A DNA stretch of 44,369 bases from a virus (IMGVR_UViG_3300028563_000009); one strand, 5' to 3'. Positions 8,547 to 43,121 are shown, counted from the stretch's first letter. The notes: generated from the letters alone by a model not told the origin. Translations and numbers: made by a program.

Positions 8547-9655
8547 TAGTACCCGTAGTAGTACCCATAGTTAAACGGACTTGCAGGACCGACTGGGTAG
8601 AAGGGTCCAAGTACAGAGTCTCCAGACATTCCTGTATCCGGGAAGAAGCTCCAAGCTTGTTCTTCTCTTTCACCAGCTAAGATGGCTTGTTGAATTTGTT
8701 CATGCCACATCTGGTTCTGCATTACTGCGCGAGGAGAGTTGGCGTGTTGAAGGCACTTGGCCACGAAACCTTCTCTGAATAAATAGGCTAAGTCGTCCGG
8801 GACAGGGGAGATTGTTTGCTGAAGCGTGCGGAACTTCGGTGCTCTACGTTGATAGGCTATCCACATCAACCACACAAACCCACCGATGGAGGGGAGAGGA
8901 TTGAATCGCAGCGCGTATCCGTTCGGATTGGCCACTGTCCAAGTTAGAGTTCCGTCTGCCACGGTAATTCCCGGAGGGCTATTCGGAGGAAGCATTGGAG
9001 CGGTTGACCCAGAAGTTCCAAAGTTTGCTCCCGTATTGTTGTACGGATTGGGGAGCGGTAAAGGAATATTGGTTCCTTGGAAGCCTAAGACGTTGGGGGT
9101 CAAATTCATGATAGACGTGTCTAAGAACAGCATGTTGCCGTTCGCATCTACTATTTGCTGGATAGGGGTGGATGTTGCCCCAGAGGTCCCGTACCCGCAC
9201 GAGTACTGTGTGTTAGCTGCCCAAGTTCCAAACATGCACTGGTTGTTGGGAATGAAACAGACAGAGGCGGAGTTACCCTGATAAGGAGTAAGCCCCATAT
9301 CTCGGTTTATCTCCATTAAGAACAACGGCTTAGGACACAGGTTATTTGTGTTAGTGTTGTTGTTAATGTCGATTCTGAATCCGGAAGTAAGCCATCCTAT
9401 ATCAGTTAAGTTGGTGATGTAGTCTTGTTGTAAAGCGTTAGTGAGGAACAGCGGAACATAGCTGGCATTCCATCTCCAGTTTAAGTTCTGCGCCAAAATC
9501 TTCTGCAAAACATCGTTTGCAAAAGTCAAGGCAGGCTCGTAGCTGTATCCTCCCGCAGGAAGTATTGGATTACACTCGGCAAAACTACGAGTGTAATTTA
9601 CTACTTCCTCAAGGGTGATTGTGCTTATTGGTTGGAGATTTGGAATTGCTGGCAT
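8546..9655 (-). CDS. Head-tail adaptor / tail tubular A-like protein (paralog of 24559-25293)
   Basis: 369 aa; shares WRWN, DY...D.GWL, YQ..AP.F and P.PD...Y....G..AK motifs with the 244-aa protein. Confidence 0.55.
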   Translation of the reverse strand: MPAIPNLQPISTITLEEVVNYTRSFAECNPILPAGGYSYEPALTFANDVLQKILAQNLNWRWNASYVPLFLTNALQQDYITNLTDIGWLTSGFRIDINNNTNTNNLCPKPLFLMEINRDMGLTPYQGNSASVCFIPNNQCMFGTWAANTQYSCGYGTSGATSTPIQQIVDANGNMLFLDTSIMNLTPNVLGFQGTNIPLPLPNPYNNTGANFGTSGSTAPMLPPNSPPGITVADGTLTWTVANPNGYALRFNPLPSIGGFVWLMWIAYQRRAPKFRTLQQTISPVPDDLAYLFREGFVAKCLQHANSPRAVMQNQMWHEQIQQAILAGEREEQAWSFFPDTGMSGDSVLGPFYPVGPASPFNYGYYYGY

Positions 9656-15457: not shown

Positions 15458-17019
15458 TATTGAACTCTCAACCCGGTATCGGTGGTCGTGCCGCAACTTC
15501 CGGAAACGATAGTCAAGGCCCCCGCTGGGAGCGATCCGCTAGTGGCGCAACGGTACACAGTATTCGTGCCCCCGTTGATTTCAACATCCCCATAAATGAC
15601 GGCTTGGGTAATAGAGTTGTTTCCGATTACTGTCTGATTGGATACTGTGTTGTAGGCTTGATACCCAAGAGCAATCGTGTTCGTTAGTTGCGAAGTTGTA
15701 TTTGGCCCCGAGTAATCGCCAACCCAAGTATTATGAGAGCCTGTGGTATTCGAGTTTCCAATGGAGTTGAAGGCGGTGTACCCGTTCGCTCCGGACATGG
15801 TGCCTATCGCCACGTTATTAGTTCCGGTCGTGTTACCAGCCAAGGCGTCCTGCCCGATTGCGATATCGTTGCTACCGGCATTCCCGGCAACACCCTCGCA
15901 ATTAGCCCCGTTGTAATACCCTCCAAGAGCTAACGTTCCGAGCGCGATTACCTCTGAGCCTGTATTGCAGATTAAAGGTCTGTGTCCTATTCCGATTACG
16001 TCCGAAACGGTTCCCATTGCCCCAGCAGCCCCGTCTCCAATACCAATTACGTCTGTGTAGTCAGAAGAGAAGGTGGGATCGCTTTCAGACCCGGAGCCAT
16101 TTCCAATTCCTACGACGTTATTGAACACGCCTGTTCCGTGATTAGAAGCAGCACCAACTCCTATTCCGACTACGATTGTTAGCGTCCCTGTAGAGTTCAC
16201 AGAGGAGGAGGAGCCATTTCCTATACCAACTACATCTGAAGAAGTCGAGACAAGATTCGCCCCGGCTCCGTTTCCAATTGCAACCACATCATCGACATTG
16301 CTTCCGATGTGCGACCCCGAGCCGTTTCCAATTGCGATAATATCGGAGCTTTGACCCCCAATTGTGTTAGCCGATCCATCCCCGATTCCTATAATGTCGA
16401 AAGTAGAAGCGGAGAATTGTATCGCCGAACTGTCCCCGATACCAACTATGTCAACTCCATTTGTTATATGAGACCCTGATTGGTCGCCGACACCTACAAT
16501 TTCTTCGGAGAAGGACGACTCCCCTACCGTGCTGACATAAGAAACCGTTTCAAATCCGAAACCACTTAGGAGGCTGAGGTTGCTGCCTGTTAAATGACTG
16601 AGGGCATCTGTTCCGCATCGCGTTGAGGTTACGTCTCCGGGGAGAGGACCGCACAGGCTACTCCCGGTACCACCGGCAGAAGACCCAACGTATATGTCGT
16701 AGAAACTACATTGGTTATACGGAGCGCAAACTTTCTCAACTAAGTGGGTGCCTGCCTGCACGTAGTAAAAATAGGTGCCTGCGGCATTAGCTTGGAGCGG
16801 TTGATCTATTTGCTGGGTTAACGCCGTGTCGGCATATATAACTAAGTTGGGAGAATCGCAAGACAACTGATCGTTCCACGTACACACCGACACCTGCGCG
16901 TTAGGGATGACCACGGAGAAGTTACTCCCCGAGGTAGGCTGAATGGCCACATTCCATCTCTGTGCTGTTTGGGAAAAACCTAGCACTGGGAACAAAAGAA
17001 ATAGAAGTAACTTATTCAT
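15457..17019 (-). CDS. Signal-peptide-bearing fibre/adhesin with YadA-head-like repeats
   Basis: Start MNKLLLFLLFPVLGFSQ; about 15-aa periodic [IV][AG]IG.G[AS] repeats and NNVAIG/NTIALG motifs. Confidence 0.65.
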   Translation of the reverse strand: MNKLLLFLLFPVLGFSQTAQRWNVAIQPTSGSNFSVVIPNAQVSVCTWNDQLSCDSPNLVIYADTALTQQIDQPLQANAAGTYFYYVQAGTHLVEKVCAPYNQCSFYDIYVGSSAGGTGSSLCGPLPGDVTSTRCGTDALSHLTGSNLSLLSGFGFETVSYVSTVGESSFSEEIVGVGDQSGSHITNGVDIVGIGDSSAIQFSASTFDIIGIGDGSANTIGGQSSDIIAIGNGSGSHIGSNVDDVVAIGNGAGANLVSTSSDVVGIGNGSSSSVNSTGTLTIVVGIGVGAASNHGTGVFNNVVGIGNGSGSESDPTFSSDYTDVIGIGDGAAGAMGTVSDVIGIGHRPLICNTGSEVIALGTLALGGYYNGANCEGVAGNAGSNDIAIGQDALAGNTTGTNNVAIGTMSGANGYTAFNSIGNSNTTGSHNTWVGDYSGPNTTSQLTNTIALGYQAYNTVSNQTVIGNNSITQAVIYGDVEINGGTNTVYRCATSGSLPAGALTIVSGSCGTTTDTGLRVQ

Positions 17020-33640: not shown

Positions 33641-33718
33641 TGGTTGCTAGGATGGGATTTGAACCCATGTCTCAAACTTATGATGATTGCGAGTTAAACC
33701 GGACTTCTCTACCCAGCT
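33641..33718 (-). tRNA. tRNA with CAT anticodon (Met, fMet or Ile2 unresolved)
   Basis: Cloverleaf, T-loop TTCAAAT, encoded CCA; A1:A72 mismatch but no GGG/CCC anticodon stem. Confidence 0.75.
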
Positions 33719-34155
33719 ATACACTTTTTGAGGTACTCTACCGCAGATAAGAACAGAGCCGGGTTTTCCCTGAGTAAGCCGAGGCTTGTGTTACAATTGC
33801 TGCATAACAAACCACGTACTTTACCTGTATCGTGATCGTGGTCTACGTGTAAATTCTTAGAACTTTTTGTGCGACAGATTGCACAGAGATTATCCTGTTG
33901 TTGAAGAAGATCGTCGTACTCTTTTTCGGATATACCATAGTTTCTTCTAAGGTCCATACGACGATATTTAGTTCTTCTATTCTTCTTCTGTTTTTCTAGG
34001 ATACTTTTTCTGTTTTCGTAATAGTGCTTTCTTTGTCTTTCGTTCTTGCAAAGGCTACACCACGGATGAAAACCATCCTTGGACTTTTTGTGAAAAGAGA
34101 AGTTTCCATGATGGGCTTCTTTCTCTTTTGAGCATAGCCTACAAATCTTTAACAT
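33709..34155 (-). CDS. Endonuclease VII-family (His-Me) free-standing homing endonuclease
   Basis: CAIC...LHVDHDHDTGKVRGLLCSNCNTSLG; probable start MLKICRLC just after tRNA-Ser; N-terminal Zn ribbon. Confidence 0.85.
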   Translation of the reverse strand: MLKICRLCSKEKEAHHGNFSFHKKSKDGFHPWCSLCKNERQRKHYYENRKSILEKQKKNRRTKYRRMDLRRNYGISEKEYDDLLQQQDNLCAICRTKSSKNLHVDHDHDTGKVRGLLCSNCNTSLGLLRENPALFLSAVEYLKKCIAG

Positions 34156-42135: not shown

Positions 42136-42138
42136 GTT

Positions 42139-42378
42139 AGTGGCTTCTGGTTACCCAGCCCGATTTTACGGAAGACCTTGTGATCTAGCTTTCGTCACCA
42201 CTTAAACTTACCCAGTTTCTCTCGCGGGACTGGGAACCCTAGTGAACGGCAGTAGCGACTGCGCGGAGCCTGACGAACTAAACTTAGTGGCCTATGAACG
42301 CTCTTTGCTTTAAGCTACACCCGTCCACTTAAGGGCGGGAGAAGAGGCGCAAATCTCTTTATCCTTCATGGAACCACT
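42139..42378. ncRNA. Candidate 240-nt multibranch ncRNA between tRNAs
   Basis: Closing stem AGTGG/CCACT plus at least six internal hairpins; fills the spacer exactly; no ORF. Confidence 0.55.
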
Positions 42379-42386
42379 TACAAACT

Positions 42387-42458
42387 TGGCTGGGGCGGCA
42401 GGAATTGAACCTACGCCTTAGGTCTTTAGGACCTACGAACTATTTATTCTACGCCCCA
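42387..42458 (-). tRNA. Atypical tRNA, Gln/Trp-type acceptor, loop CCTAAAG (TAA by position, CTA in a 5-nt loop)
   Basis: TGGGGCG/CGCCCCA-G-CCA, TAGGT/ACCTA stem, good T arm, shrunken D loop without GG. Confidence 0.6.
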
Positions 42459-42459
42459 A

Positions 42460-42534
42460 TGGAGCGCGGAGTGGGACTCGAACCCACGACAAGCCGGAGT
42501 AGAATCGGCTGCTCTACCACTGAGCTACCCGCGC
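42460..42534 (-). tRNA. Amber suppressor tRNA (anticodon CTA)
   Basis: GCGCGGG-TA-GCTC-AGTGGTA-GAGC-A-GCCGA-TTCTACT-CCGGC-TTGTC-GTGGG-TTCGAGT-CCCAC-TCCGCGC-T-CCA; U33 followed by CUA. Confidence 0.85.
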
Positions 42535-42538
42535 AAAC

Positions 42539-42871
42539 TTATTGCGAACTTTCTGGAGTCCTCCAGAGCGGGTAATGTCTTAACAACTCTCTTTGTTCTT
42601 CTCTAAGTGGAAGGGTAACAACCCCGCCAATCTTAAAGTCAAAGTCATTGTCTTCGAAAGCAACGTGTGGTATCTCGTTATCTTTCAGATACTTAATTAC
42701 ATCTTGGAGTCCCTGACTATCGGGTACTCCTATCAAGACTATATAAGGGGGTTCCCCCTCATGTGCATACTCAGCCGACATATCAAATGTCGCATGGTTA
42801 GTCTGGATGATCTGCTGGGCAAGACTTATATCTTGCCGTACGAAAATATAGAAATACTTAATCTACGTCAT
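42539..42871 (-). CDS. PTH2-like peptidyl-tRNA hydrolase, 110 aa with in-frame TAG at codon 3
   Basis: AAGGA RBS, then ATG ACG TAG ATT AAG in frame with YIFVRQD...QIIQTNHA (PTH2 VRxD...Q..HA motif) and YIVLIGVPD...AFEDND; the ORF track starts at an internal Met (42781). Confidence 0.75.
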
Positions 42872-42879
42872 TTTTCCTT

Positions 42880-42954
42880 TGGTGGATCGGGAGAGATTCG
42901 AACTCTCAACTTCCGGGTGCAAGCCGGGTGTTTTCCCATTAGAACTACCAACCC
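42880..42954 (-). tRNA. tRNA-Ala(TGC)
   Basis: CCGG-CTTGCAC-CCGG, G3:U70, A73, CCA. Confidence 0.92.
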
Positions 42955-42960
42955 TAAGTT

Positions 42961-43036
42961 TGGTCGGGGCGGTAGGACTTGAACCTACATGATGACTCGA
43001 CTCCAGATCGAGAGGCTTACTTTAGCCCACACCCCG
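42961..43036 (-). tRNA. tRNA-Pro(TGG)
   Basis: CTCGA-TCTGGAG-TCGAG, C1-G72, A73, CCA; unusual C33. Confidence 0.8.
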
Positions 43037-43112
43037 TTGGGGCACAGGCCCCCGTCTACGCTTTCGGCGCGGCGGGTGCTGGACGGTCGATGTTTTTGTA
43101 AGTCATAATACC

Positions 43113-43121
43113 ATTATACCA
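43113..43121 (-). promoter_or_regulatory. Extended -10 promoter of the tRNA operon
   Basis: TG-G-TATAAT with no evident -35; predicted +1 at about 43106. Confidence 0.65.

Follow-up and report, generated by a model that had tools for sequence, protein, structure and literature searches.

The window analysed here is a stretch of 44,369 nt of viral DNA (IMGVR_UViG_3300028563_000009). It contains a tRNA gene with the anticodon CUA, hereafter tRNA(CUA), directly behind a small gene for a predicted peptidyl-tRNA-hydrolase-like (Pth2-like) protein, and the third codon of this gene is an in-frame TAG. The window belongs to an uncultured soil phage of ~115 kb (ENA contig of 114,911 nt; GC 49%). All of its genes are on the minus strand, including those for the large terminase, the portal, the major head protein and a tail-module protein with a GH10 domain. 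The closest cultured relative by terminase, a phage of Tunturiibacter (Acidobacteria), is 25% identical, IMG/VR relatives have terminase identities of 49-81%, and megablast found no GenBank phage match for the 4.4-kb region searched. ARAGORN found 14 tRNAs in the window, all on the minus strand, and Rfam adds a fifteenth. Three features concern us most:

42875..42879, minus strand: Shine-Dalgarno sequence AAGGA, starting at the next base after the CCA of tRNA-Ala and 3 nt (AAA) before the leader ATG
42539..42871, minus strand: Pth2-like gene of 110 codons (from translation)
42460..42534, minus strand: tRNA with the anticodon CUA, of the amber suppressor type (ARAGORN; Rfam RF00005)

A 75-nt tRNA with the anticodon cta was called by ARAGORN at exactly 42460-42534 of the minus strand, and its RF00005 score is 55.5 bits, against a gathering score of 29. 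The acceptor stem is GCGCGGG/UCCGCGC (G1-C72, C2-G71, G3-C70, C4-G69, G5-C68, G6-C67 and G7.U66), followed by U73 and an encoded CCA. The D arm is GCUC-AGUGGUA-GAGC, with GG in its loop, the variable region (UUGUC) has 5 nt, and the T arm is GUGGG-UUCGAGU-CCCAC. In the anticodon arm, the stem GCCG(A)/(C)CGGC leaves A31:C39 unpaired, the loop is UUCUACU (U32 U33 C34 U35 A36 C37 U38), and the RNAfold minimum-free-energy fold has a stem from A26-U44 to G30-C40 closing a 9-nt loop. The tRNA thus has CUA at 34-36 after U33, as an amber suppressor does, and departs from the canonical 7-nt loop with a purine (A) at position 37 and a paired 31:39. The first-pass annotation, made from the sequence alone, had described the anticodon with U33, the pyrimidines at 37/38, the A31:C39 mismatch, a Gly-like acceptor (G1-C72, C2-G71, G3-C70, U73) and a His-like core. 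All of these are present in the sequence, the anticodon is also the one given by ARAGORN, a tRNA caller that it had proposed as a check, and the best local match in Escherichia coli is indeed tRNA-His (82.8% over positions 8-63).

The unusual anticodon loop is not an assembly error, since the same sequence occurs in other assemblies: 1201 nt spanning tRNA(CUA) match three other samples (L091, L092 and L093) at 100% identity, and in a fourth other assembly (L081) the tRNA is identical and the neighbouring gene differs by one residue. The segment 42460-42534 is a genuine tRNA. ARAGORN labels it 'Pyl' from the anticodon alone. A tRNA-Pyl has a short D loop without GG, a 3-nt variable loop and a 6-bp anticodon stem, and we rejected the label on architecture (canonical D loop AGUGGUA, 5-nt variable region, T loop UUCGAGU); no search for pyl genes was made.

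The Pth2-like gene opens with ATG (42871-42869), ACG and TAG (42865-42863). Behind the TAG, a frame of 107 open codons runs from ATT (42862-42860) to the stop TAA (42541-42539), 4 nt before tRNA(CUA). The first canonical start past the TAG is the ATG at 42781, codon 27 after it, and the most conserved block of the family, (Y)xFVRQD...QQI(I/V)Q(T/S)NHAT, sits between the two. Because this start lies past the invariant block, the conserved N-terminus would be untranslatable without readthrough of the TAG.

The product is supported as a predicted protein of the Pth2 fold. An AlphaFold model made with 13 homologues (predicted local distance difference test, pLDDT, 77.7) has the strand-helix pattern of Pth2, and Pth2 proteins take all of the first ten places in a Foldseek search of the PDB (2zv3, 3erj, 1xty, human Bit1 1q7s and others), with a probability of 1.0 and TM scores of 0.62-0.68. 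The likeness to archaeal and eukaryotic Pth2 (PF01981; 1xty, 3erj, 2zv3, 1q7s) lies in this fold (Foldseek probability 1.0) and in the N-terminal strand-helix motif VRxD...Q..HA, whereas identity is ~17%, below the Pfam threshold, the glycine-lysine segment is missing, and activity is only predicted. A profile search of the alignment against PDB sequences gave nothing meaningful. Pth2 genes have been noted across jumbo phages (PMC7824862).

Stop codons of the phage and the proposed gate

Code usage was examined in 54 of the ~115 kb, namely the window and 10 kb beyond its end. The stop of the 48 curated window genes is TAA in 41, TAG in 4 and TGA in 3, which agrees with the manual count of the first-pass annotation (four genes ending in TAG, at 2321, 31186, 33709 and 39031, and most in TAA). 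Each of the four TAG terminators is backed by another in-frame stop 2-13 codons on, and readthrough would add only those 2-13 codons, with no recognisable domain. Internally, the 48 genes (13,738 codons) have just one in-frame TAG, which is at codon 3 of the Pth2-like gene and was not mentioned in the first-pass annotation; the other 47 genes have none. As had also been noticed beforehand for frames of 1000-1785 codons, the open reading frames (ORFs) of 1785, 1521 and 1038 codons are free of in-frame TAG. When TAG is read as sense, long-ORF coverage gains no more than in a control with TGA as sense, both in the window and in the 10 kb beyond it. For the DNA examined, this is the kind of coding-density comparison that the annotation had called for, and it gives no sign of recoding. 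The phage is not recoded in the DNA examined, and the earlier idea of a targeted suppression in place of a code change fits well with a lone in-frame TAG in the very gene that adjoins the tRNA.

The avoidance of TAG that had been implied for the whole genome does not extend beyond the late genes. In the early-gene 10 kb beyond the window (L091 1-10000), 28 genes end in 15 TAA, 7 TAG and 6 TGA. Since TAG ends 7 of 28 genes there and 4 of 48 in the window, the dominance of TAA is a property of the late module and not of the genome.

We rejected membership in genetic code 15, in which conserved and especially late genes hold many in-frame TAGs, on the one TAG in 13,738 codons. It could still be argued that TAG is a sense codon in genes outside the DNA examined: ~60 kb remain, and TAG-recoded phages typically carry CUA tRNAs (bioRxiv 10.1101/2021.08.26.457843). 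Known recoding, however, is concentrated in structural and lysis genes, and those of the window have no in-frame TAG; TAG is an ordinary terminator in a quarter of the adjacent early genes (7/28); and the cultured phages that carry the same module (see below) are annotated and propagated as standard-code phages. We regard this explanation as extremely improbable. Three further TAGs were considered as gates and discarded. The one at 2638 is followed by a gene (2321-2602) with its own Shine-Dalgarno sequence and ATG after the TAG, and those at 15541 and 10075 are inside other genes in another frame.

We think it likely, from the arrangement of the sequence, that tRNA(CUA) is an amber suppressor which gates the adjacent Pth2-like gene through the UAG at codon 3, with no change of the code. 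Ribosomes would start at the leader ATG, which has its own Shine-Dalgarno sequence, read ACG and meet UAG at the third codon. If tRNA(CUA) inserted an amino acid there, the full protein of 110 residues would be made; otherwise RF1 would release the chain at two residues. The rest of the genome would keep the standard code. Since readthrough would be required, the output of the Pth2-like protein would be gated by the activity of the suppressor tRNA and scaled to it. With low certainty, the gate may serve to tie the supply of a translation-rescue enzyme to how often stop codons are read through, or to set when the enzyme is made. Quadruplet decoding (UAGA) by the enlarged loop was rejected: the +1 shift meets a TAA after 11 codons, and triplet reading keeps the Pth2 frame in every homologue.

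The proposed TAG gate in other phages

In the IMG/VR relative L004, tRNA-Pro and tRNA-Ala are followed by a leader MSNEH, then TAG ATT, the Pth2-like gene and, 2 nt past its stop, tRNA(CUA). In L081-L084, from ENA and Logan assemblies, the leader reads MT or MR and is followed by the TAG, the Pth2-like gene and, directly behind, the orthologous tRNA. Within its clade, the window, L004 and L082-L084 have both the gene and tRNA(CUA), and both are missing from L003 (at the syntenic site), from the contig G004 (98% complete) and from three partial contigs.

We scored the nearest upstream in-frame stop in 28 distinct close Pth2-like homologues from IMG/VR. It is TAG in 25, TGA in two and TAA in one, at most 21 codons from the conserved strand; the homologues are related and the counts are of non-independent events, which lowers their weight for the gate. 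The leaders before TAG are short, start with ATG and mostly have two codons (MT, MH, ML), and they vary in length and sequence while the TAG stays. A purine directly follows the TAG in 24 of the 25 TAG-gated homologues. An ATG leader with TAG is also found in cultured phages, namely Acinetobacter ME3, Salmonella Arash, Serratia BF and Ralstonia RsoM2USA. In L004, L026, L029, L033, Arash, BF and RsoM2USA, a Shine-Dalgarno sequence (AGGAG/AAGGA) lies 5-10 nt before the leader ATG, and not before the codon that follows the TAG. The ORF after the TAG of BF has no ATG, GTG or TTG at all, and in Arash, RsoM2USA, L026, L029, L032 and L034 the first canonical start is at least 32 codons in.

A CUA tRNA occurs within 10 kb of 21 of the 25 TAG-gated homologues, against none of the three with TGA or TAA. 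It is usually 0.3-3.7 kb downstream of the gated gene, and several homologues have two or three. In ME3 and Arash it is within 1.5 kb of the gene; in BF, RsoM2USA and the L034 and L035 contigs it lies elsewhere in the tRNA array.

Other observations were made around these genes. In huge-phage contigs of 455 kb and 223 kb, the neighbours of the CUA tRNAs include tRNAs whose anticodon loop has 8 nt (L026 3525-3600 and L029 5305-5384), and ARAGORN gives them the four-base anticodons gcaa and ctag. Phage transfer-messenger RNA (tmRNA) genes are found 1.3-1.7 kb upstream of the gated gene in L031 (1473-1885), L034 (1256-1649) and L035 (1322-1641), and the Pth2-like proteins of L034 and L035 have alanine-rich tails (...QEAA, ...YAAA) resembling the ends of tmRNA tags. 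In L020 (5986-6426) and L031 (2992-3645), the gated ORF has no stop before the next tRNA (loop GCAGUCU with C33; 'Thr agt' by ARAGORN). More distant homologues (L125, L126, L129, L132, L137 and L140-L142; 25-38% identity), scored by the nearest stop, have 140-180 open codons upstream of the Pth2-like domain, and their CUA tRNA is 0.2-3 kb upstream, not downstream.

Besides the relatedness of the homologues, several points weigh against a gate that depends on suppression. The complete 121-kb contig G001 has the gate TAG, and ARAGORN found no CUA tRNA in its 19.5-kb tRNA array, the stretch with all of its Rfam tRNA matches. In the one lineage formed by G001 and L031/L106, the TAG gate stands without a recognisable CUA tRNA and an odd tRNA comes right after the gene. 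The homologue of Xanthomonas phage XacN1 is fused in an uninterrupted ORF of 279 codons, despite two CUA tRNAs in that phage (PMC5852040). PF01981 is sub-threshold in 6 of 13 members, at best 19.6 bits against 23 (in the L004 copy), and does not match the window copy; as sequence models only graze this family, we write 'Pth2-like'. We also infer from sequence the expression, charging, readthrough and efficiency of tRNA(CUA), and likewise the purpose of the gate. Finally, ATG directly follows the TAG in L083, L084, L110 and L112, GTG does in L120, RaK2 has an ATG 4 codons past the TAG, and the ATT after the TAG of the window could be a weak start. With a start codon at or near the TAG, termination and reinitiation could serve in L083, L084, L110, L112, L120 and RaK2.

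Such starts lead to an alternative in which ATG-x-TAG is a mini-ORF resembling a minigene, ribosomes reinitiate at the next codon to make the Pth2-like protein, and the CUA tRNA is otherwise employed, for instance in disturbing host termination. In the bar biology of phage lambda, two-codon minigenes and peptidyl-tRNA hydrolase are functionally linked. This explanation would take in the ATG and GTG just mentioned, the ATT or ATC after the TAG in the window, L004, L020, ME3 and RsoM2USA, and also G001, where leader and TAG exist without a CUA tRNA. Many homologues, however, have a codon after the TAG that is not a start (AAC, AAT, AAG, GGG, CTG, GAT, GAA or GTT), and the BF frame offers no canonical start anywhere. 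Moreover, reinitiation would work with any stop, yet the stop is TAG in 25 of 28, and it does not say why CUA tRNAs so often accompany the gene, or why gene and tRNA are either both present or both absent in the clade of the window. We therefore consider it quite unlikely as a general account, and retain readthrough by tRNA(CUA) as the preferred one.

Orthologues and amino acid identity of tRNA(CUA)

The five orthologues (window, L082, L083, L084 and L004) have CUA and acceptor pairs 1-5 in common. A fold of four of them (window, L082, L084 and L004), from which L083 was left out because of its insertion, has compensatory changes in 7 of 21 pairs. As CUA and the acceptor were kept meanwhile, we take them to be working tRNAs under selection. 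L004, L083 and L084 have the canonical loop CUCUAAA and a paired 31:39, and in comparison five of the nine positions around the anticodon are changed in the window. The tRNA of L082 (1330-1405) has an 8-nt anticodon loop, AUUCUAAC, read as 'tcta' by ARAGORN, and A73 in place of U73, and that of L083 (659-759) has an insertion of ~28 nt forming a hairpin in the variable region.

The loop features were compared over 208 distinct phage tRNAs, including 18 CUA tRNAs. A pyrimidine at 37 is found in 8 of the 208, and among the CUA tRNAs only in that of the window, the other 17 having A37. A 31:39 mismatch is commoner in CUA tRNAs (5/18) than overall (18/208), and A31:C39 with U32 is also seen in unrelated CUA tRNAs of L026 and L032. 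A37, together with A36 and A38, is required for the isopentenyl modification that stabilises the reading of codons starting with U. Without A37, and with a noncanonical loop of effectively 9 nt, weaker decoding is expected of the window tRNA, and it is plausible, from C37/U38 and A31:C39, that it is a suppressor of low efficiency. These same features also count against the gate in the window, since a tRNA that alone among 18 combines a pyrimidine at 37 with an open 31:39 could be weak or even inactive. From the other side, an efficient suppressor would be costly to a phage in which TAG ends 7 of 28 adjacent early genes.

The window tRNA could accordingly be seen as a decaying copy of a canonical suppressor, disabled by C37, U38 and A31:C39, with the gated gene now silent. 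The canonical arms of L004, L083 and L084, the five changed positions of nine and the rarity of a pyrimidine at 37 (8/208) would fit such decay. Against it, the tRNA retains CUA and U33, its acceptor, D and T arms are intact and differ from those of the orthologues by compensatory changes, and its sequence is fixed in five assemblies. The window gene keeps all family-invariant residues, which argues that the tRNA, as its only route to expression, still works. The nearest relative, L082, also has an enlarged loop, of 8 nt, and A31:C39 with U32 recurs in L026 and L032, so that enlarged or open loops look like a recurring variant rather than decay. We hold decay to be improbable.

As for the amino acid, the bacterial determinants of glycine identity are U73, G1-C72, C2-G71 and G3-C70, with C35 and C36 in the anticodon (Giege and Eriani 2023, PMC9976931, Table 1). 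All four acceptor determinants are present in tRNA(CUA), and among the 14 ARAGORN tRNAs of the window they are shared only with the phage's tRNA-Gly(UCC). The anticodon determinants C35 and C36 are not there, the tRNA having U35 and A36. The Gln acceptor set (U1-A72, G2-C71, G3-C70, G73 and G10) is not that of tRNA(CUA), with its G1-C72, C2-G71 and U73. The earlier suggestion of Gly rather than Gln is therefore sustained at the acceptor end and weakened at the anticodon, where U35 favours GlnRS or LysRS. Glycine is a plausible candidate for the inserted residue, with Gln or Lys through U35 as alternatives. Amber suppressors have been engineered from E. coli tRNA-Gly, and U73 mattered for suppression in vivo (McClain et al. 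1991, as cited in PMC9976931). Like these, tRNA(CUA) combines the Gly acceptor determinants (G1-C72, C2-G71, G3-C70, U73) with CUA; unlike them, it is natural and phage-borne, has a core like that of other isoacceptors, and lacks A37/A38.

The CUA tRNAs that go with the gated gene in different phages do not form a single family, and their acceptor stems and discriminators (U73, A73 or G73) differ. Since the UAG lies in a variable leader, any inserted residue would do, and there is probably no selection on it. This would account for the 'mosaic identity' remarked on in the first-pass annotation and for the unrelated acceptors of the gene-linked CUA tRNAs.

We also weighed whether tRNA(CUA) is a decoy or sensor in a conflict between phage and host, involving a tRNA-targeting nuclease or a TacT-type acetyltransferase, with the Pth2-like enzyme as countermeasure. 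Peptidyl-tRNA hydrolase reverses N-acetyl-aminoacyl-tRNA. The tRNA has both U73 and G71, a combination reported to direct TacT to tRNA-Gly (PMC9976931), and a role in rescue following tRNA cleavage has been discussed for the Pth2 of jumbo phages (PMC7824862). The gene-linked CUA tRNAs of other phages, however, have A73 or G73 and unrelated acceptor stems, so that a Gly-specific decoy role is not general, and the in-frame TAG would be left unexplained. This explanation seems to us very improbable.

Matches to tRNA(CUA) were also sought by pattern. Exact-pattern scans of IMG/VR found no match to its anticodon arm, and a pattern of its 5' half plus CUA matched L004 only. A host donor tRNA was not identified: a 5'-half scan of 185,579 species genomes matched only two tRNA-Ile(UAU) genes of Saccharibacteria. 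An origin from tRNA-Lys (77-80% identity, with most of the BLAST matches among phage tRNAs) was rejected, as we read it as generic similarity of the D and T arms.

Flanking features, related systems and implications

The remaining features of the locus, and one gene farther off, are as follows:

43056..43121, minus strand: candidate operon head (from sequence, moderate evidence)
42961-43036, minus strand: tRNA-Pro(UGG) (ARAGORN, Rfam)
42880-42954, minus strand: tRNA-Ala(UGC) (ARAGORN, Rfam)
42387..42458, minus strand: atypical tRNA, 1 nt after tRNA(CUA) (Rfam 51.2 bits, match 42390-42458)
33712-34155, minus strand: endonuclease VII family gene (PF02945, E 9.5e-26)

tRNA-Pro and tRNA-Ala are the upstream members of a tRNA-mRNA-tRNA array, and the order Pro-Ala-gene-tRNA(CUA) is also that of L004 and L081. 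At the candidate operon head, an extended -10 element (TGGTATAAT) is present at 43121-43113, and seven bases on, a 16-codon ORF starts at ATG 43106. It ends in TAG (43058-43056) and is followed by a GGGGC/GCCCC hairpin and tRNA-Pro. The L082 counterpart has an extended -10, a TAG-ended ORF of 17 codons encoding a different peptide, and a hairpin before tRNA-Pro. The fold of the leader region is no better than that of shuffles (z -0.9). From its sequence, the 16-codon ORF could give the operon a second UAG sensor at its upstream end.

The atypical tRNA has the Gln-type set of U1-A72, G2-C71, G3-C70, G73 and G10 (E. coli type) and an encoded CCA. Its D loop has 5 nt and no GG, and its anticodon loop is CCUAAAG with C33, the nominal anticodon being UAA, or CUA if shifted by one. 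Its fold has a z-score of -3.95, with a 6-bp stem and a 5-nt loop in the minimum-free-energy structure. It was not called by ARAGORN and was found only in the window's own lineage, an exact-pattern scan of IMG/VR giving no match to its arm.

An extension of the proposed gate would be a self-referential circuit, in which the operon of tRNA(CUA) has two UAG sensors, the TAG-ended leader peptide and the TAG at codon 3, and feedback by the Pth2-like product holds readthrough at a set level. The enzyme would act on peptidyl- or aminoacyl-tRNA(CUA), or on ribosomes that have run past stops, and the widened loops (9 nt in the window, 8 nt in L082) would be tuned variants of low gain. We put this forward as a tentative idea that is unlikely to hold in full.

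Some other observations concern the surroundings. The 250-nt spacer between the atypical tRNA and tRNA-Trp (42136-42386, minus strand) contains a block of ~60 nt (GTCAGGCTCCGCGCAGTCGCTAC...GAGAGAAACTGG) that also occurs right after tRNA-Ala in L003 and has no Rfam family at E up to 1. Just past the window end, ~1 kb upstream of the tRNA operon, is a 108-codon GGQ gene (GGKGGQHRN; mini release-factor or ArfB-like; L091 ~9070-9396, plus strand), which is split by gene callers and has no in-frame TAG. The endonuclease VII gene is inserted between tRNA-Ser(UGA) and tRNA-Met, where L003 has only 93 nt, and its TAG stop (33709) overlaps the 5' end of tRNA-Met. In a relative, a group I intron (RF00028, 50.5 bits; L002 8012-8244) lies downstream of the terminase gene.

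Suppressor tRNAs and 'code change modules' are known from the TAG-recoded code-15 phages (crAss-like, Lak, Jade and Agate; Borges et al., bioRxiv 10.1101/2021.08.26.457843). The likeness is that a phage tRNA(CUA) would override a host stop, that particular phage genes would depend on it, and that a timing or regulatory role has been proposed. In contrast, here it would concern one small gene, perhaps with a leader peptide, through a single TAG at its very start; the structural and lysis genes keep the standard code, TAG still terminates, the GC content of 49% is not low, and the tRNA is not Gln-type. XacN1, a jumbo phage with the standard code, is similarly rich in tRNAs and has CUA tRNAs and a peptidyl-tRNA hydrolase gene. 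When 18 of its amber stops were read through by its authors, they reported 'no potential genes targeted' (PMC5852040). In our case the candidate target came from TAGs at the starts of genes, not at their ends, and the XacN1 homologue itself is not gated.

The release factor gene prfB (RF2) is autoregulated through an in-frame UGA, which ribosomes pass by a +1 frameshift, and the system responds to its own product. Both systems have an early in-frame stop in a translation-factor gene whose expression depends on how that stop is decoded. The difference is that here the stop is predicted, from sequence, to be read in frame by a dedicated tRNA, and feedback by the product is conjectural. Full-text literature searches found no published description of the in-frame TAG of the Pth2-like gene or of its pairing with a CUA tRNA.

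The cassette of the window is a further instance of the layout of tRNA(CUA) and gated gene, as read from sequence, and it is set apart by its unusual anticodon loop. Annotation misses or truncates such genes: they have no coding sequence in BF (L038) and RsoM2USA (L039), and in Arash a fragment of 50 residues is all that is annotated. GenBank also gives the CUA tRNA of Arash (L037 2801-2875) as tRNA-Phe. With the module present in cultured phages of Acinetobacter, Salmonella, Serratia and Ralstonia, the proposed gate can be tested directly. The window tRNA itself may be informative on how loop context tunes suppression, as a natural variant in which position 37 is a pyrimidine and the 31:39 pair is open.

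Suppressor tRNAs of standard-code phages have been reported without a known target, as in XacN1 (PMC5852040), and the UAG at the start of the Pth2-like gene offers a testable one. If our suggestion is true, a private change of the genetic code would gate the expression of a gene here, in a natural system of minimal size. The suggestion also bears on the origin of stop-codon recoding, since it would explain why a suppressor is retained ahead of recoding, and if the circuit were real as well, standing suppressor cassettes in standard-code phages would be raw material for genome-wide recoding of TAG.

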